DNA of 51,096 nucleotides. It comes from Thelocarpon superellum (lineage: Eukaryota). Below are positions 1 through 34,178 of the stretch, one piece after another. How positions within the stretch are numbered: the stretch's first letter is position 1; each line of letters opens with the position of its first letter. The translations under genes and the position numbers were made by a program. The stretch is taken from positions 1-51,096 of the forward strand of contig JAPEUG010000089.1 in assembly GCA_026025795.1 (NCBI GenBank), read 5' to 3'. The notes beneath the pieces are model-generated. The model made no database searches. It saw only the letters and a program-made list of their open reading frames with translations, and had not been told where the DNA came from.

Positions 1-490
1 CATGGCAGTAACCATGGATGAGATGATGACGGAGGTGTCGTAGAGGCTCTCGTTGACCTACGCACGAAGATCAGCACGGCTACATCAGATCGAGGGGAAT
101 CACAAAAGAAGCGTCATGGCATACACCTAATTGAATATCATTGGAGCCTAGAAACATCGGATGACCACCCATGCGGACGATGGCGGCTTCGGTTGAGACT
201 CTGGTACGCGTACTCCGTTTGCTAAACATCATGGCGATGGTCTTGCCGGACAAGCTACCCAGGAGAGACTCCGGGACCAGGCCAGATTTGAAGGCAAGTT
301 TGTGGAATAAAGCTTTGCGGACGAGCGTGGAGAGTTCGGAGGGGGAGATATCAGCAATGGACAGCAGATGACGAGGTGCAAAGGGAGAGATCTGGGGGGT
401 GGAGGCATGTGAGTAGGAGCGTGGGCACGAATGAAGTCGACATCGAGCGGTGCCTCTCAGCATTCGACGACCAAGGACCGACGACATCAT
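1..490 (-). CDS. ARG3: Ornithine carbamoyltransferase, mitochondrial (5' part; runs off window start)
   Basis: PRHLLSIAD...FSKRSTRTRVSTE carbamoyl-phosphate motif and GGHPMFLGSNDIQLG. Intron 58-124 (GTATGC...TAG) rejoins to VNESLYDTS. Arg/Ser-rich N-terminus resembles a mitochondrial presequence. Confidence 0.95.
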
Positions 491-798
491 GCGAGCTCGT
501 GGTCAAGCCTGCCAGGGAGGTGGAAAGTTCACATCCGCAAGGAGGTTGGCAATTGTAAGACTCGTCACAAGCACAATTGTCGATAGGCCATACTGCGAGG
601 CGATGGAAGGATTCAACGGAGACTACTAATCTGTTACTGCCATGTAAAATAATGCATTGGGCTGCGTTACGCCGTATTATGAGCCTCCAGTCTGCGGGGA
701 CGCTTGGGGGTCGAATCGTTGGAATTTGGTCAGCTCGGCAGAGGATTCCATGTGGCTGTGGGTCCACCAATCAACGCTGTGAAGCGGGAGACCAAGCA

Positions 799-960
799 TG
801 TTGAGGATGACATAACGTGTGGTTGGTTATAGGAGAGCTCAGCAGGAAATGCTGCTTCAGGTAACCCTACATATTATCACTATTTAGTATAGGGAGACCT
901 AAGCGGAGTTTTAATAGTTAGCCCTAATACTTCCAACGCTGTATTCCCCAATGCACAACA
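799..960 (+). repeat. LTR copy 1 (degenerate)
   Basis: Starts TGTTG and ends CAACA. Shares the blocks GATGACATA, GGAGAGCTCAGC, GGAAATGC, GGGAGACC, GAGTTTTAA and GTATTCCCCA with 3365-3526. Confidence 0.85.
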
Positions 961-1710
961 GTGGGAGATATCTGCTGTCGACCATGTGACTGGGAGAATA
1001 TGTCATTAGTCATCCTCGATTCATACCAATGCCCTCGGTGTTAGCTAGACTTCTTGCATCCTACATCCTCATCCATAGAATGACCTGCAACCAATGAGAA
1101 TTGACTCCTTTGGCCTGTGGCCAACACCGCTAGCGTCTAGCTTCGACGTTCCCCGGCCTGTGCATGCCATGCATGGTATTCTTGGGCGGCGTTGGCCGAG
1201 CCGATGATTCACTAAGCTGTACGAGGCGCTGGCCAAAATTGAACCTCTCGCCGGTTTTGTTTTGGCTTTCATCTATCGCAATGTCATCGTCGTCGGAAGA
1301 CCCTGCGCTGCCGTACTCAGCTCATGCCACTACGTTCTGCCATAACCATACGGAAGGTAGAGACAAGTGTTAACAGAGATTTGGCACTTGAGCGGTGTGA
1401 ATCGGGCCGCATTTCGTGCATGGGGAGATGGTAGTGGTGATGGTTGCCTGACGGCGCCGTTCGATGCAAGGCGAAGGCAATATTTAGACGATGGGGTTGC
1501 CTTTGCGACGTCTGTGCGACCAGCACTGCCTCGCAGCCCTTGCTTTCAGCACTGTCGCGGACTATGTCCTCGTGTCTTTGAGTATCCATCTTCCCCCCCT
1601 TCCTGAAGATGAAGTTCAACCCATAGAGCACACGAAAACGAGTGAGCATGGAAGCCCATGTTAGTCTTCCGGTCGTCTACTGATGTGAGATGCAGACAAC
1701 ATTGAGCGCC

Positions 1711-2020
1711 ATGTGCACAGGACACTACACGAGATACGCTTGCCACCACGAAGTGGTTACTTGGACCGAACCTTGCAAGGATCGTTGCGGGGCAATCAAG
1801 GATCGTGACTACACCGCAGCAATGTCAGGGAAATGTCCTGATTGCCAAAGGCAATGTCTGCTCTATCTACTCGCACTGGATCCTGTGCTTAACGATAAAG
1901 CGCAGTAGTGACAAGATCTTTGCTCTCCACCAAAATCGATGCTGGAAAGAACCAAAGGCTGAGGAGTTTCTGAATGACCTCTCATTGCTGGCGAACGAAA
2001 AGGGAGGGGACGTTCTTTGA
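1711..2020 (+). CDS. Small Cys-rich hypothetical protein (MC..Y.CxH...C...C...CPDC type)
   Basis: gccATG context; MCTGHYTRYACHH...CKDRC...KCPDC. A putative GC-AG intron at 1851-1905 (branch CTTAAC) joins to SDKIFALHQNRCWKEP...GGDVL*. Unspliced, the ORF stops at 1908. Confidence 0.5.
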
Positions 2021-2049
2021 GCTAGATGAATCAAATACATACCCATATC

Positions 2050-3201
2050 TCACAATCGCGATCGGATCATCTTCAAGCCCTCGAGGTCAATCAACTTACT
2101 CATGACCATTGTCGGCTGCTGCGCTTTCCAAGAGACATGAAAGTCGGGGAGCGGCTCTCCAACGAGCCCCGAATGACTGAAATCGATAAGTTTAATCTTG
2201 CTGTTGCAATCGAACATGATGTTGCCACCGCTGACATCGTTGTGGACCACATCGCCTTGGTGAAACTTCTCAGCTGCCGCTTCGAAGATAGGTAGGTACG
2301 ACAGCAATTCGGTTTTGGGAATCTTCGAAAGCTCCTCCATGCGAAAGCCAACGATCCCGCCTCTGTCTCTCAGAGGTTTGTCGGCAACCTCGACGATTGG
2401 TGAATCCAATAACCGGAACCGCTTCAGGTTGTTGACTTCGATATCGATGAGGCGTTGCGAGAGAGAGTCTCCATGTGCCAGCTTGACTATAGGAAACCGG
2501 CTCTGCCGATCGAGTCGTCGTACCTGTCCATAAGATCCAGAAGCAACCGGAGTCGAACGATTCCAATAGGATCGTTCAAGCGGAGACTGTAGAGCGCGTG
2601 TAGTGCTGGCATCGGGGATATTCGGGAAGCAACTAAGGTCCGGCGATTTGTGAAGCTGCGGGAAGCGCACTGCAAACGTCCGCCGATCATGGTCGATCCA
2701 GACAAGATATTGGCCGTTGTCTAATTGAGGTACAGACACCCGGATAGTCTGTTGGATGGTTCGTGGGTCGTCTGGAAAGTGCCAGAATCAACGCCTAAAT
2801 TGAATCTGGCTTCAACATACCCGTATGATCTCGGACAATCCTCTGTAAGGCAAAGCAATTCCAAGCGTGCGTCCGCTTCTGGACTTCGGACGGCAACTCT
2901 CGTACGAAGATACTCATACTCTTAGAAGACCTGACGGACGGAGATCCCACAGGCCAACGGCGCAAAGGACTAGTGTCTCGAGACCAGCCGCGCTCTGTAC
3001 CTTCATCAGTAGTTGCTTGTAGGGCTTGTTCAGGACCGGGTCTTCTGCCATTGACCTCGTCAAGGCAAAAGCGTCTCGAACAACGTCCTTCTGACGATCA
3101 TTGATGTCACCATCCCGTCGAATCCGCGTATGGGTTTTGCGAAGCCGCTTGATTGCCTTGCGAATGATCTCAGCTTCGGGTTTGACATGTCTAACCTTCA
3201 T
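2050..3201 (-). pseudogene. Atypical short protein kinase with helical N-terminal domain; apparent 2-bp frameshift
   Basis: Kinase motifs ASGSYGQV (Gly loop), IVKLAH (VAIK-like), EVNNL, VVHNDVSGGNIM (catalytic loop) and LIDFS. Intron 2772-2820 (GTATGT...TTCCAG) links an upstream exon. That exon joins ORF 2914-3201 only if a TG duplication at ~2948-2951 is removed. Confidence 0.7.
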
Positions 3202-3364
3202 CGAGCGTGTCTCCGACAGGGTTGAGGGACTCCGCTCCTAACAACATCGGGGAAACTGCGACGCCGACCAAATGTCTGGCTGTTCCGCGCTAGTGACTAT
3301 TGAGAGAGCCGGAGCGATCCGAGCCTTGGCCATTATTGGGGTGCTCGTACAAGAAACCAGGTTG

Positions 3365-3526
3365 TGTTGAAAGATGACATATTCAGTGGCTGGCCATGGG
3401 AGAGCTCAGCGGGAAATGCCGCGTTAGGGGTTCCCATGGATTTCGTATGGGGAGACCCAAGCAGAGTTTTAACTGATAACTAGTCAGCATTAATGCAATC
3501 GACACCGTATTCCCCAGTGCGCAGCA
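3365..3526 (+). repeat. LTR copy 2 (degenerate)
   Basis: TGTTG...CAGCA; about 75% identical to 799-960 over aligned columns by hand alignment. Confidence 0.85.
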
Positions 3527-3821
3527 TAGCACACTGCGGCCGGCAGCCAGCAGCCAAGAACCGCAACCGGAGTTGGAGACGGACGGATATCAGACACCAG
3601 CGGACGGGTGGTGACGGATGGACCCAAATCACGATATCCTCCCGTCAATCACTCCCACCACTTCTCTTCCCCCGCGTCGTGCACCGTCTCTCCATCTTCC
3701 ACCGTCGAGGGATCCCTCGGGCTAGCTAGCTTGTGCTCGCCATCGGCAGGTTCAGACATCTTGACGGATACGTCCTGCAGCGCCCATGCCGATTGTCAGC
3801 AGGCCTTGACCTCCGACAGCC

Positions 3822-6742
3822 ATGTCGGACGACCCCTCGTCGCCCCTTTTGGGGTCCACGGAGGGGACCGACCGACGTCGGCCAGCCTCGGGGAAGTCGC
3901 ATCGGTCGCTGCCATCCAACGCGTCGACCGAGTCAACACCCCTGCTCTCTCGTGGTGACGAACGCCGCACCTATGGCGATGAGCATCAGGAGGAGGACCC
4001 CACGTCACCGGCTGCCTCATCGTTACGCTCACTACAGGATGCCTCGACGAGCACCAAGACACGGCTGAGCCGCTGGCCCAGTGTCCTTGGCCTGTCCGTC
4101 CTGAGCGCCATCATCGTGCTCATCATCGCAGCAGGCTTCGTGGCGCCGACCGTCGTGGAATCGTACGCGTCGCAGGCCATTGTCTTCGAGCCCTCCAAGG
4201 TCGCCATCGATTCCTTCACGCCCGATGGGGTGCGAGCGAGGATACAAGGTACCTTCCAACTCGACGCGTCGCGAGTGGAGAACGGTGCGGTGCGCCACCT
4301 CGGTCGGGCGGGAACGTGGATTGCCCGGATGGTGGAGAGTGAGCCGTCTACCGTGCATCTCTACCTCCCAGAACGTGGCAATGTTCTCATTGGCACCGCC
4401 ACCATCCCACGCCTCGTCATCCGCATACGGGATGGCGACATCAACGAGATCGACTTCTTGACCGACCTGGCCCCCGGTGAGGTAGACGGCGTTCGCCAGA
4501 TCGCCAACGATTGGCTAGAAGGCCGGCTGGGCCAGCTCCGCCTGCAGGGCAAGGCAAATGTGGGACTCAAGTCGGGCATATTCTCGCTCGGGACGCAGAG
4601 TATTTCCGAGTCCCTTGTCTTCGAAGGTCAATATTTGTATAACCCCTTGTTGGGTCGCCCGGCGTGGTGAGGATCCCTGCTGACTTGCAACGTGCGGATA
4701 GACCACGACCTCCCAGCTATCCCTGAATACAACATCACGCGCATGATCGTCCACGAAATTGATCTGCCCTCAGGCGAGAAGGGTATGGCCGCCGACGCCT
4801 CCCTGACCCTAAGGAACCGCTACCCTGTGAAACTCGCCGTTCCGCCGCTCGCTTTCAAGATCCTCGTTCCGAACTGTGACGAGGCCGACCCTCGGATCTC
4901 GTTGGCCGAAGCTCTCTCCGATTCCATCACGATCGAGCCATATACCGACGTTCAGATCGATGTGACCGGCATCGTCCGCCAGCTACCAGATGCCCTGACC
5001 ACAGCATGTCCTGACTCGCAATCTTCTCCGCTCGATCTCTTTCTCGATGGCTACCTACACGGCGAAGACACCACCATTTTCGTACGCGGCGCCGATGCGC
5101 CGTCGAACGAAACGCCCCGATGGATTGCAGAGCTGCTGTCGAGCGTCACTATTCCACTGCCCTTCCCCGGGCACACCTTCGACAACCTCATCCAACAATT
5201 TTCCCTCGCCAACGTACATTTCAGTCTCCCCGACCCCGGCGCCCCATCCGGCTCGCTCGAGGCCCAGCCCACCATTTCGGCGACGGTCAAGGCGTTGATC
5301 AACCTGCCGCGCGAGATGAACTTTCCCATCGACGTCACCCACGTGCGTGCCGACGCCGATGTGTATTACCACGGTGATAAGTTAGGCCGATTAGATCTGC
5401 GGAAGTGGCAGTCGGCGAACTCGACCCGCATCGACACACCTGCTGGGACGATGCCCGGTCTGCTGGTGCAATCCAACGTTGAAGACGCCCCACTGGAAGT
5501 CACGGATGAAGATGTCTTCACCAAAGTCGTGCAGGCCCTGGTCTTTGGCGGGAAGGTGGTGATGTTGGGTATCAAGGCGGATGTTGACGTCGAGGTCGAG
5601 ACGGCCCTGGGAGAGCTCGTCGTCAAGCAAATCCCCGCCGAGGGTCAGGTTGCGGTGAAGCGTAGGTCCACCGTGCGAACGGCTGATGGTGATGCTAACC
5701 TCAATCGCAGCGCTTTCCGGTGGATTTGGGTCGTTGGCACCGAGGATTGGATCGCTTAAGATCCTAGGCACAAGCACAAAGAGCATCTCGATCCAAGCCA
5801 AGCTGAACTTTACCAATCCGACCGACTACAGCGCTCATGTGCCGTACGTGAGCGTCAACATTCTCAAGAACGGCACAGTCCTAGGGCAGGCGACGGCCGA
5901 GGGCGTGACCGTGCTACCGGGCCAGAACGAGGATCTCCTCGTCCAGGCCACGTGGGATCCACTGGTTCGAAGTGGCAAGGAGGGCCAATTGATTGGGCGA
6001 GAGTTGGTGTCGCAGTACATCTCGGGTATGCCGGTCTCTATCAATGCAGTCTAACCGAGCTGATCAGGATAGGATGGAATACGACCCTGGTGCTCCAAAC
6101 ATACGAAGGGTCAATCCCTTCACAGCCATCGTTAGGGAAAGCCCTGTCGGCTCTCGAGATCGAGCTTCCTGCGCCAAGATTACGCCCTCCCAAGCGTCCT
6201 GGCGACGGCGACGGCGACGGCGACGGCGATGACGAGGACGATGGGACAGATGGCGCGCCACAGTTCATCGAGGACGCAACGGTAGAGCTCACTCTCATCT
6301 CTCCATAAACTCTTTGCGGCGTTTACGCGGTCTCTCCTCATCTGTGAGCCTTCTTCACGAGCACTTTGCGACGGCGGGCTGAATTATCGGCTCCTCCTAG
6401 ATGCATCTCTTCTCCTCCACCGCCACCTTCACCCTTCTATCGCCCCTTATTGACACTACCTTCTTCATCACGCACATCAACGCCACGGCCTTTTACAACC
6501 ACACCGATCCCGTCGGCACCATCCTGTACGACCTCCCCTTTGCCGTCCCACCCCACAGCGTTGAGACGCCCCGTCTACCCGTAGACTGGAGTCTCGACAG
6601 CGTCGGCTACGAAGCGGTGCGCAAGGCCCTCGGCGGCCAACTCAAACTGGACGCCGAGGCCGTCGTGGGCATCAAAATCGGCTATTTCGTCGAACGCGTG
6701 TGGTACGTTGGCAAGCATATCGGCGCCAAAGTGCGCCTGTAG
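3822..6742 (+). CDS. Tag1-like / DUF3712-type single-pass membrane protein (often annotated 'pre-rRNA processing protein')
   Basis: N-terminal ESTPLL dileucine motif, one TM helix, then repeated LEA2-like beta domains. Exons 3822-4626, 4702-5661, 5711-6025, 6073-6281 and 6401-6742 join in frame via GT-AG introns. Confidence 0.8.
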
Positions 6743-17430: not shown

Positions 17431-18391
17431 CGCACATCGGCACTTTGCATGGATTGTTCTGGGCCACTCACTGTACAAAGCTAGCGTATTCTCCAATGCA
17501 CCCAGTGACGATGTCATGAAAGGCGGTCCGCAACATCTGATGGCAGATCCCACGCGGGCTGGCATAGAGACGATCAGTCACACGTCCTCCAAATCTGAGC
17601 GAGCTCAATGCCATGTGTAGAGCACGCGGTTCGAGCACGCTATGCAGTGGTCGACCTGCTAGGGTCGGCTGCGCTGCGAGTGCGGTCACGTGTGATGTGA
17701 CCACAGGCGAGCGGCGGAGACAACCTGGTCTCCAGGGTGTGACGGATAGAAGGTCAGCGTCAGCACACGCAGGTACGGCGGCCTCGGCCAATAGACGCTC
17801 GCCCATTGATCTCGCTAAAGACCAGACCCCGTCGCTACCGTCTCGCACCCTGCGCCTCGAGATCTCGTTGGTGCAAGGCGCCCGTAGGACTCGGTCGCCG
17901 TACCAGGAGTCCGCCCTGGTGCCCAAAGCTCAACACGGCCAGAGATCGGCCCAATGCCACCAGGGACCCGTCACGATTTTCCAGGAGCACGGGCGTCGTG
18001 GCGACGGGCAGGTGATCCGCGCAAGAGGGCTCGCATAGCTAATGCCAACATCTGATCAGCGTCCATTAACGTAATCCGTAATCGATGCGGCGCTGCTCCC
18101 GCGGCTCGCTGCTCGTTGCTGACGGCCACGGCGACGGCCACGGCGACGGCCACGGGCGCCTGCACTGCACCATCGCTGCCGTCCAATCAGGCGCGCTTCA
18201 TCGATAGCCGGAATTCTTCAAACGCTGTTTCTCCCCTTCCGCCCCTTCTCCTGCCTCCACCTCTCCGCTCCATCCTTCCTCTCCTCCCCCACCCCCACCG
18301 TCGCGGGACTGCCGCCATCGATTCGACGTCGGACGATTGGCCACACCCGCCGTCGTCGTCGTCGTCATCGTTGCCGTCCGTCGTGCGCGAC

Positions 18392-21971: not shown

Positions 21972-22043
21972 CTAACGTCCTACCCTCTTGGTCGTTTCAA
22001 TGGCGTGTTCACTCTGCGAGTCGGAGGCAACCGAGTCTCGGCC

Positions 22044-22198
22044 TGTTGCGCAGTGGGAATACAGTGTAGATAGTATTATTAAGGCTAGCTGTTAGAACTC
22101 TGCCTGGGCCTTCCCATACCAATTTTATGGGAACCGACAAAGCGGCATTTCCCATTCCGCCTTCCATGACCAACTGCTGGTTATGTCATCTTCCAACA
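22044..22198 (-). mobile_element. Solo LTR (copy 3, inverted relative to copies 1 and 2) with perfect 5-bp TSD
   Basis: TGTTG...CAACA ends, flanked on both sides by CGGCC (22039-22043, 22199-22203). The reverse complement aligns end to end with 3365-3526. Confidence 0.9.
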
Positions 22199-22385
22199 CG
22201 GCCGGACCACCGAGCAAGTCACCTGACCAGGCGACAACGCTTCGCCTTCGCGATACGGGGCGCGTCACCCAGGTCCCACTAGTCCCACGGCGTGACGACG
22301 ACCGGCCAGGATCCAAGACCCGCGCTTTCCCATGCGATCCATTGATAGATGAGCACGATCTTGGACGAGTCGATCGCCTTTCACC

Positions 22386-24298
22386 ATGCCTGCGTGAGTC
22401 TCGAGAGCTGTACATGCTTCGAATCTGTTTGCTCACCACCCTCAGTCCCGGGCATCAACACCGAGAGAGCGCGGCTGGGGCCAACCCATTCGAGGTGCCG
22501 GGGCAGCGAGTGTCCCCGTGGACGGCACAACAGATAGCCACCTTGACGAGTCGATTGGATAAGCTGCTGGGCCCAGAGTACATCTCGTCTCGACCCGGGC
22601 CTGGGGGCAAGAAGATATCGTACCTCGCAGGAGACCAAGTTATCGGCCTCGCCAACGAGGTCTTCGGATTCAACGGATGGTCTTCAAGCATACAAACGGT
22701 GGCCATTGATTTTGTGAGGCTAATGATAGGCTTGATCTTCACTCGGAGCTGATGGATCTCAGGCGGATGCGAACAGTTCGGGCAAAGTCAGCATCGGACT
22801 GTCAGTCACCGTTCGAGTGACTCTACGAGACGGGACGTTTCACGAGGTATGTCTTGATGGACGTGGCGTGGACCAAATTGACCGTCTCCAAGGACATCGG
22901 CTATGGGAGCGCCGATAACATGCCGACCAAGGCGTTGGCCTTTGAGAAGGCGAAGAAATCGGGCACGACGGACGCGCTGAAGAGGACGCTGAGACAGTTT
23001 GGCAATGTGTTGGGGAACTGCCTAAACGACAAGACGTATCTTGATCGGGTGAAGAAGATGAAGGTGCAGCCGGTATGTATGGCGAGGCGATTGAGGCTCA
23101 CGCTCTAACTGGGGTAGGCCAAATGGTCAGAGGACAAACTACATCGACACCCAAACTTTGCTCCCGTCAAAAAGGAGCCGTCTTTCGCTCCGGTGAAGAT
23201 GGAGCCAGACGCGGAGATGGGCGAAACTGGGACGTCCAATCATTGTAGGCCGATGGATCTTGAGACCACTATGTAAGGAAGTTTGCTGACGAACGATGGG
23301 ACAGCATCGGGCGGCGATCCAGACGACGAATTCGGGGGCGATGAATTTGATGAGGTCGACTTTGCCGAGAGTACAATGCTCGATGGAGCAATGCTGGACG
23401 ACGTGGTTGCTTCGGCACCAGCGGCCAATGGGCTGGGAGTAGGTCTCTCTTTCTAAAGAAAAGAGGATCCAATCTTTGACGGCTTGGCAGCGAAACGGCA
23501 CCGTGGGACCGCAGGGAAATCAAGGACGACCATCGATGCCATCCGCTCCTCGAACGCCTGTCGCAGCAGGGCCTCCCGCACGAATGGGCCCTCCTCACAA
23601 CGCTATTGCCTCAAATGGACAGAGAAGCAACGGGCCCATGCAGACGAGCACCAACCACCGCCCACCTCCGTCCAACGGCCCACAGGCCGGACAAGGTTCT
23701 GACGCATCCATGCCATCCCCTGGATTCTACACTGCCCGCGCAGCCCCTCTCGTCCAAGCTTCTGAGACGGCTCCGCCTCCGAACGCCCCAACGTTCAATC
23801 CACACGCGGAAAGCCCGTCGATTCGCAAAACGAGCGGCATCGATCACTCCAAGACGAAACCTGTCACTCGAGACGTGCAAGCGGGCGTGGCCACGGTAAC
23901 AACCACCACGAGTGTCGTTCGACCGACTGCTCTGACCTCGGGATCACACGGTCCGATGGGAGCAGGCGACCAAACACGCAAGGTCGGGATGCCAAATGTG
24001 TCCAGCCCGATGCTGAATCGTGGCAACGCTTCGTCGTACAAGCCTCCTGGGCCGGCCCTGGGAAAGAGGGTGTTGGAAGGGGGGATGTAAGTCAGGCCGT
24101 TCATGCCACCTTGTCTCATGTTTAGACTTGAGAAGGCTGATGGGGAGCAGAGCACAACGCGCCCCTCTTCACGAAGTTCCACATGAGCATGTCAACGTAC
24201 AGAGCAACAACCCCGCGAACAGTCACAGCGGCAAGACGATGGAGACGAACGGGGGTGGGACCGAAGCGAAGAAACCGCGGCTAGGTGGCCTTACTTAG
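22386..24298 (+). CDS. RAD52: DNA repair/recombination protein Rad52
   Basis: Micro-exon ATGCCTGC, intron 22394-22445, then [57 protein letters not shown] and [13 protein letters not shown]; several further introns. Confidence 0.95.
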
Positions 24299-32930: not shown

Positions 32931-34178
32931 CTACCGCTTCTTGGTGGTAGGTCTCGGCTTGGCCTCCTCGGTGCCAACACCATGCATCATGACCTTGGTG
33001 GGATACTGCTGGTTATTGGACGCGTAGCCCTTGCTCCAATCGTAGCTGATGGCGTAGGCGAAGATGTTGCCGTTGCGGTTGAAGGTCGTGGCGGAGATGG
33101 TACCGCCCACGGCCGGGTACCCCTTCAGTCGGTGCTTGGCGTCCTTGTCCCAGAAGTGAAAGGTGCCGTCTGACCCGGCCGTGCTGAACGTTCCGTGCAC
33201 CGGGTGGAAGGAGATCGCATTCACCGAGTACACATTTGCTACGTCGCGCTGGCCCGGCGGCGTTTCGCGGTGGCACTTGAATGAGAAGTTGGATCTAGAT
33301 GACATGTTAGCTTGGAAGGGGAGGGCAGGACGGGGGAGATGGGGGAGATGATGGGATGGTGGGATGGTGGGATGGTGGGATGGTGGGATGGTGGGATGGT
33401 GGGATGGATGCTTACGCTTGGTCTTTCTCCTCCACGTATTGAATGGCGCACCGGCCCTCGATGCTGCCCACGGCAAACCCACTGGAATCCGTGAAACAGC
33501 TGACCACTCGCGTCTGCCACTTGAGCGGGCTCTGCATGGACTTGTAGAACTTGGTCGGTTCGCTGAGGTTGACGATGTTGATGTACCGATCCGCCGTGCC
33601 AATCACCATCAGTTTGTCCCGGACATCGAGCGTGTACACGCGCTCTTGACACGTCAGCGTCGCCACGGGACTCGACTGTCGAAGGTCCCAGTATTTGACC
33701 GTCTTATCCCACGACCCCGTCACCAGCATCGGCTGGCTCGTCCCCGGCGCCTCGATGAACCGGACCACCCGGATGGGCTGATCGTGCGCCGCCACTTGCT
33801 GCGCCGTTCCTCCCCCGGCTTGAAGATCCAACATGCGCGCCGCTTTATCCGCTCCGGCCCCCACCACCTTCGTGCCATCCTACTTCATCTTAGACCTGTC
33901 TCCGCGCAGAAGGGGCTAGCTCCACGTACCTTGGACCAGTGTGTGCTTAAGACGGGTCCCTCATGTTCGAACAACGCCTTCCCCTCGCTTCCTCCCGACG
34001 CGTTGATCTCGTAGATGCGCACTTTCTTGTCCCATGAGGCCACGGCAAGATGGTCCGACTGCGGTGAAAAGGCAATGTCGGAGATGCTGTCCTCCGGCGG
34101 CGCGGTCAAGGCCACGTCCTTCGTGAGGTCGCCCAGGGTGCTGCTGGCCGACGACGAGCTCCCGAAGAGGGACGACAT
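32931..34178 (-). CDS. RAE1: WD40 mRNA-export factor Rae1/Gle2
   Basis: PEDSISDIAFSP, SPLKWQTRVVSCF, GSIEGRCAIQY, FSFKCHR, TAGSDGTFHFWDKD and YDWSKG. Introns 33880-33929 and 33295-33415. Confidence 0.95.
33351..33410. repeat. (GGGATGGT)n tandem repeat inside RAE1 intron 2
   Basis: About seven copies of an 8-mer, directly visible. Confidence 0.9.

Follow-up and report, generated by a model that had tools for sequence, protein, structure and literature searches.

The window analysed here, a 51,096-nucleotide stretch of contig JAPEUG010000089.1 from Thelocarpon superellum, contains two direct long terminal repeats (LTRs), copies A and B, which bound a block with a kinase-like gene between a gene for ornithine carbamoyltransferase (ARG3-type) and a Tag1-like gene. 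The reading favoured here, with a probability of roughly 0.45, is that A and B bound one ancient integration of this LTR-bounded block into the divergent promoter shared by ARG3 and the Tag1-like gene. Its close rival is that two solo LTRs inserted independently, with a previously resident kinase gene between them, and the preference between the two is a leaning. Under either reading, the locus is no active vehicle for gene spread.

Structure and sequencing depth identify the repeats as members of a genuine LTR family, dispersed and multi-copy. Copies A and B were recovered by local alignment of positions 500-1300 against 3100-3900 (score 88, compared to a maximum of 27 in 30 shuffles), with exactly the coordinates that the initial annotation had given for two 162-bp direct repeats, and the homology stops precisely at the TG and CA termini. 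The locus holds two direct LTRs with TG..CA termini, one of the traits expected of an intact LTR retrotransposon. A third copy, C, had been described as a solo LTR whose 5-bp target-site duplication is perfect, and it indeed carries CGGCC on each side on the plus strand (22039-22043 and 22199-22203). Such TG..CA ends, combined with a duplication that in C is perfect over 5 bp, mark LTR insertion by integrase; these two traits do not separate copia from gypsy elements. Copy number was read from contig depth, for which contigs of public runs were aligned to positions 1-6000 of the window, a reading that would overlook copies of less than 80% identity. In X1, the probable source run of the assembly (hereafter the source run), the bin 3401-3600 has a mean depth of 1423, compared to about 150-180 in the flanks, and the LTR core is between about 9-fold (bin mean) and 26-fold deeper than the interior of the block. 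At 3438/3439, in the core of copy B, 22-23 other contigs overlap, and about two thirds of the core depth is lost 5' of 3412 (1283 at 3406 vs. 3916 at 3438). Three contigs of the source run break at 3365 and have unlike sequence upstream (agreement 0.59), which fits family copies at different sites. Copy A draws little extra depth, as fits the most diverged of the three copies. Moreover, a 28-nt degenerate motif of the LTR core has three matches in the window and none in 100 shuffles; in a metagenome contig collection, it had no match. Depth and core motif thus bear out the LTR identity that had been proposed from the letters alone.

The evidence for a single integration lies in the flanks. A solo LTR that inserted independently should still have a target-site duplication of its own, as copy C does. 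The own flanks of copy A (AAGCA/GTGGG) agree at one of five positions and those of copy B (GGTTG/TAGCA) at none, while the outer pair, AAGCA and TAGCA, agrees at four of five, just as had been noted before. By chance, at least four agreements have a probability of 0.017 given the base composition, and among 5-mers of the window at the same spacing the empirical value is 0.0195. This pattern favours one integration over two: independent insertions need three coincidences, namely the loss of recognisable duplications at A and at B while that of C is intact at all five positions, and an outer match of about 2% chance. On the assumption that a recognisable duplication has disappeared from 15-30% of old solo LTRs, the joint probability of the pattern would be about 1e-3 under two insertions and about 0.5 under one event, and the likelihood ratio of one event to two, which depends on the assumed rates of duplication loss, might lie at about 100-500.

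Several observations weigh against the single integration, and the first is that five base pairs, one of them a mismatch, make for thin evidence. The others begin with the LTRs themselves. Global alignment of A and B gives 117 matches, 36 mismatches and 18 gap columns, i.e., 76.5% identity, about the same as A-C (75.8%) and B-C (77.4%), so that A-B is not the highest; local alignment gives scores of 88 for A-B, 62 for A-C and 110 for B-C. A repeat search with exact seeds (seed 12, minimum 60 nt) missed the A/B pair because the two copies are far from identical, and a looser search found them as pieces D5 and D9 and the inverted copy C as pieces I1, I2 and I7. Private differences number 23 in A, 14 in B and 15 in C, which makes A the most diverged copy; the site patterns of the three copies have no outgroup, and the sister status of A and B is not readable from them. 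The motif GAGAGCTCAGC is common to A and B and absent in C. According to the depth data, other family copies carry it as well, and it is therefore a subfamily trait and not a private bond of A and B, which again counts against the single event. Repeat-induced point mutation (RIP) was considered as the source of the low GC content of A, the private differences of which are not clearly RIP-like: 10 of the 23 are C-to-T or G-to-A, 7 are the opposite and 6 are transversions.

The same side of the argument is strengthened by the interior, which spans about 2.4 kb between A and B and is host-type DNA, not the interior of a retroelement. None of 77 stop-to-stop frames (at least 30 aa, positions 600-3700, E up to 0.05) matches gag, protease, reverse transcriptase, RNase H or integrase; the only consistent matches are to kinase families, in one frame, and three weak, unrelated matches have E-values of 0.005-0.03. 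No polypurine tract is present in the 30 nt before B, where the longest purine run has 6 nt, does not adjoin the LTR, and is of a length that 22% of random 30-mers reach. A primer-binding site is not recognisable after A, where the sequence begins with G-TGG, and the window, with no tRNA gene, offers none for comparison. The initial annotation had described the interior in the same terms, as free of gag/pol, primer site and polypurine tract. Rfam has no match in 500-3900 (E up to 1), and this, together with the lack of tRNA genes in the window, excludes a small-RNA-derived LTR of the Cassandra type. In the source run, interior and flank bins lie at single-copy depth (124-242, compared to a single-copy level of about 150-180), the sole extra interior pieces belong to a minor variant of the same locus, and the contig data show neither a donor locus nor an empty site, nor a second copy of the block. 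Within the kinase exon, the depth reaches 385 at 2633, compared to about 151-157 at 2602 and 2706; the extra contigs match a short part of the exon at 80% identity or more, and might represent a paralogue fragment or a spurious short match.

Position points in the same direction. Copies A, B and C all lie about 190-310 nt 5' of a start codon (the Rad52 start being an inferred one), and, given three copies in 51 kb of gene-rich sequence, the family may be so densely spread that neighbouring copies in the same orientation are common. The promoter-proximal position of all three copies may reflect integration targeted to promoters, or a bias in which copies survive in a compact genome. These observations suit two independent insertions by a dense, promoter-seeking family, one into the ARG3 promoter and one into the promoter shared by the kinase gene and the Tag1-like gene, where copy B lies 163 nt (3202-3364) 5' of the start of the N-terminal open reading frame (ORF) of the kinase. 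Each element would have been reduced to a solo LTR, the own duplications would have been lost, and the outer agreement would be chance. The kinase, in turn, comes from an ordinary fungal gene family, members of which (P0002, P0004 and P0007) reside on contigs of 2.4-3.2 Mb. Set against the coincidences that the flanks would demand, this explanation is a serious one, somewhat short of even odds.

The single integration, to which we return, would have entered the divergent promoter of ARG3 and the Tag1-like gene, then about 600 bp long, and would have made or kept the 5-bp duplication that now reads AAGCA/TAGCA. How the block arrived can be inferred from what each route predicts. The favoured route, put forward tentatively, is a DNA-level insertion through LTR homology: the block could have left an LTR-flanked donor locus as a circle formed by LTR-LTR recombination, or could have been copied by ectopic repair, and might then have recombined into a resident solo LTR, the duplication of which would have stayed outside. 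Such a route works without primer site or polypurine tract, leaves introns in place, and involves two LTRs that were never identical, which would explain an A-B similarity no greater than that of random family members. A chimeric, non-autonomous LTR retrotransposon carrying a transduced host kinase, retrotransposed once and with A and B as its own LTRs, is unlikely. The antisense orientation of the kinase would have let its intron survive passage through RNA, and integrase-mediated insertion would have made the AAGCA duplication. The LTRs of one retrotransposed element are identical at insertion. That A-B is not the closest pair therefore argues against this version, unless the event is among the oldest of the family. 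A full element with an interior that was later replaced is very improbable. In all of these one-event versions, the unit is now a fixed, immobile fossil; it is single-copy, has LTRs of 76.5% identity, and is also present in a close relative.

The presence in a close relative is drawn from contigs of two moss-metagenome runs of one study, which leave 1401-2400 and 2801-3200 uncovered, gaps that are no sign of sequence missing there. These contigs match copy A plus 24 nt of the interior (834-984, seven differences), an overlap below the 31 letters required to count as bridging; they also match the interior at 1150-1356 (four differences) and at 2523-2759 (three differences, one synonymous and two replacement), the flank at 3698-3955 (eight differences), and Tag1 coding sequence (0-1 differences). 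At 95-100% identity to copy A, interior and flanks, the matches imply that a close relative has the same LTR copy and block and that the arrangement predates the split. Contigs of another organism from the same study match conserved coding sequence only (2-60 and 4429-5236); none joins ARG3 to Tag1, and they are uninformative on an empty site. Within the source run itself, single contigs at about 48x carry clustered differences at 538-589, 1920-1990 and 2760-2843, where the total depth is about 141-167x. The differences, which include a 4-nt deletion at 2815, are sited both inside and outside the LTR-bounded block. A minor second form of the entire locus, at about 0.3 of the depth, therefore seems to be present in the sample; it could represent another haplotype, nucleus type or strain.

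The kinase is the one interior gene that could be verified, and, to judge from its sequence, its product is a short, atypical kinase of the eukaryotic type. The last exon has all the expected motifs (Gly-rich loop, Lys, Glu, HxD..N and DFS), and K96, E111, H170, D178, N183 and D196, i.e., the beta-3 Lys, the alpha-C Glu, HxD..N and the DFG-type Asp, are invariant in 14 aligned sequences including the window protein. A family profile aligns to the solved kinases GCN2, CK2 alpha, CDK12 and TTK from the N-lobe to the DFG motif (best E 3.3e-12). The domain ends soon after DFG and is without the activation-segment/APE region and the lower C-lobe. Its score against Pkinase (PF00069) is 23.2 bits, below the Pfam gathering cut-off of 31.7, which five of 12 scanned homologues pass (P0001 with 35.9, P0007 with 34.5, P0010 with 33.5, P0011 with 32.1, and the repetitive P0006). 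P0006 (1069 aa) matches the catalytic-loop region in 15 separate stretches, and looks like a tandem array of kinase cores or an assembly artefact. The nearest relative, P0001, aligns over 95% of the kinase exon at 52-54% identity, and was the single relative in a word-indexed database (52% identity). An exhaustive search of representatives gave 151 relatives with E≤0.001, 76 of them at ≤1e-10; of ten clusters looked up, four have an organism name, three being assemblies of lichen-forming fungi (Piccolia, Candelina and Psora) and one Mycothermus. In the metagenome contig collection, 423 pattern matches to the kinase were found, none of which was confirmed by tblastn.

Upstream of the last exon, the gene model is less simple. 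The 49-nt intron at 2820-2772 is well supported, and differs in the source run's minor variant by four substitutions and the 4-nt deletion. Read in the second frame, 2935-2825 encodes RSSKSMSIFVRELPSEVQKRTHAWNCFALQRIVRDH, which aligns to residues 78-113 of P0003 with a score of 102 (maximum of 41 in 300 shuffles). The N-terminal ORF is out of frame with this following segment, and relative to the long homologues the break falls at about 2936-2960. Both parts are stop-free and homologous to one continuous ORF of P0003, which implies that the frame break is recent, or an assembly error. A short form that starts from the ATG at 2917-2915 would have 272 codons, similar to P0001 (278 aa) and P0002 (282 aa). 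For a long form, splicing of 2919-2843 (GT..AG, 77 nt) would restore the frame at the cost of conserved coding sequence, and the three-exon model that results (341 codons) is doubtful, since the homologue P0003 has the stretch as coding. By our reading of the variant and the translation, the C-to-T change of the minor variant at 2843 is synonymous in the second frame, which favours the stretch being coding. The GC content at third codon positions (GC3) is 0.55-0.59 in the kinase, compared to 0.71-0.80 in five resident genes and the two Tag1 exons; ARG3 exon 1 has 0.57. The low value of the kinase is mildly consistent with a block from elsewhere.

The second interior gene that had been proposed, a small Cys-rich one, is just an open frame. 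It has no Pfam family and no candidate homologue, and its GC3 of 0.53 is the same as that of nearby non-coding frames. A language-model score of 0.90 to small hypothetical proteins of Ascomycota is borderline, with a recognition value of 2167 below the mark of 2300. With this frame unverified, the supposed two-gene module comes down to one gene. The initial annotation had proposed a gene-carrying element, or a cassette integrated by LTR-LTR recombination, that could disperse such a module; the flank pattern favours its single integration, and the dispersal is unsupported. A currently or recently mobilisable element of the TRIM (terminal-repeat retrotransposon in miniature) or LARD (large retrotransposon derivative) type that spreads kinase and Cys-rich frame together is barely credible: TG..CA-ended direct LTRs, 5-bp outer flanks that nearly match, and an intron-bearing kinase on the strand opposite to an intronless Cys-rich frame, the layout that passage of a plus-strand RNA might be expected to leave, speak for it, but the interior is single-copy with one verified gene that has a frame break, the LTRs are as diverged as unrelated copies and differ by several indels, primer site and polypurine tract are lacking, the Cys-rich frame has no homologue, the nearest kinase relative is just 52-54% identical, and the metagenome contig collection yielded neither the LTR motif nor the kinase.

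Table 1. Features of the LTR-bounded block, its flanks and the relevant neighbouring genes (positions of the window).
Feature	Position	Strand	Remarks
Left outer flank AAGCA	794-798	.	Candidate half of target-site duplication
LTR copy A	799-960	+	162 nt, TGTTG..CAACA, 42% GC; 308 nt 5' of ARG3 start codon
Cys-rich open frame	1690-1908	+	72 codons; gene status unverified
Kinase-like gene, last exon	2050-2771	-	Kinase domain, 239 codons + stop
Kinase-like gene, intron	2772-2820	-	49 nt, GTATGT..CAG
Kinase-like gene, upstream coding segment	2821-2917	-	Second frame; homologous to residues 78-113 of P0003
Kinase-like gene, N-terminal ORF	2914-3201	-	95 codons; homologous to N-terminal domain of long homologues P0003, P0005
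LTR copy B	3365-3526	+	162 nt, TGTTG..CAGCA, 50% GC; 295 nt 5' of Tag1-like start codon
Right outer flank TAGCA	3527-3531	.	Candidate half of target-site duplication
LTR copy C (solo LTR)	22044-22198	-	155 nt, TGTTG..CAACA; 5-bp duplication 5/5
Ornithine carbamoyltransferase (ARG3-type), first exon	80-490	-	OTCace_N, E 2.6e-19
Tag1-like gene	3822-5759	+	At least two exons; Tag1_C, E 8.1e-37
Rad52-family gene	ORF 22096-22749		Rad52_Rad22 match; copy C about 190 nt 5' of likely start

The setting of the block was placed correctly from the start: OTCace_N and Tag1_C matches confirm divergent ARG3 and Tag1-like genes on its two sides. In the window as a whole, 145 of 161 longer frames were scanned (the other 16, in 83-6305, are partly covered by separate scans), and no retroelement protein is among those 145, which are housekeeping only: acetolactate synthase small subunit, RecQ-type helicase, PPR, MRP-S25, SOG2, Rad52, aconitase, WD40, amino-acid transporter, aspartyl protease, SDR, Yae1 and MetRS. 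The region of the WD40 gene also holds about 10 tandem copies of the 8-nt unit GGTGGGAT (33334-33413), and 12-nt periodic repeats of the GGCGAC type occur in several coding regions (6193-6245, 18110-18167).

If the single event is true, an LTR family carried a block with a host gene into the promoter that two housekeeping genes share, which bears on how accessory genes enter conserved, gene-dense fungal regions, and which may have rewired the ARG3 and Tag1 promoters. Chimeric retrotransposition, if that was the route, would make the locus a fossil case, in a filamentous ascomycete, of gene transduction in the manner of retroviruses. Should the two LTRs be independent, this is an ordinary locus, with solo LTRs in the promoters of a compact genome.

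Among known systems, solo LTRs of fungal Ty1/copia or Ty3/gypsy elements share with the copies described here the short TG..CA units, the 5-bp duplication (copy C), the dispersed copies with unlike flanks, and the sites upstream of genes. They differ from A and B, in which each copy lacks its own duplication and the near-match spans the pair; a superfamily is not assignable without an internal region. A fungal Copia element with LTRs of 165 bp has been described (bioRxiv 10.1101/2025.11.13.688278), and the gene capture described there is of the Helitron type and not of the LTR type. A literature search found no fungal LTR pair that carries a host kinase, from which absence from print is not implied. 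TRIM and LARD elements, and LTR elements with captured host genes, have in common with the locus two LTRs around an interior that is not gag/pol and has host-type coding sequence; the locus is different in its lack of a recognisable primer site and polypurine tract, in its single-copy interior, and in LTRs that are diverged like unrelated copies. Maize Bs1 and TRIMs are plant examples of gene capture by LTR elements. The window protein resembles the small, atypical kinases of Pezizomycotina in its alignment to P0001 and in the invariant Lys, Glu, HxD, Asn and Asp, and departs from them in its score below the Pfam cut-off and its out-of-frame N-terminal ORF. Finally, circles of Ty elements arise by genomic recombination in yeast, and movement without an RNA intermediate is raised there as a possibility (Moller et al., 2015; PMC4751563). 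These are Ty elements in S. cerevisiae, whereas the locus has host-gene cargo in a filamentous ascomycete, with no circle, donor site or reintegration observed; yet circle formation by LTR-LTR recombination and relocation through LTR homology predict the same pattern as is found around the kinase block, i.e., non-identical LTRs, an outer duplication that is kept, unrelated inner flanks, and no need for signals of reverse transcription.

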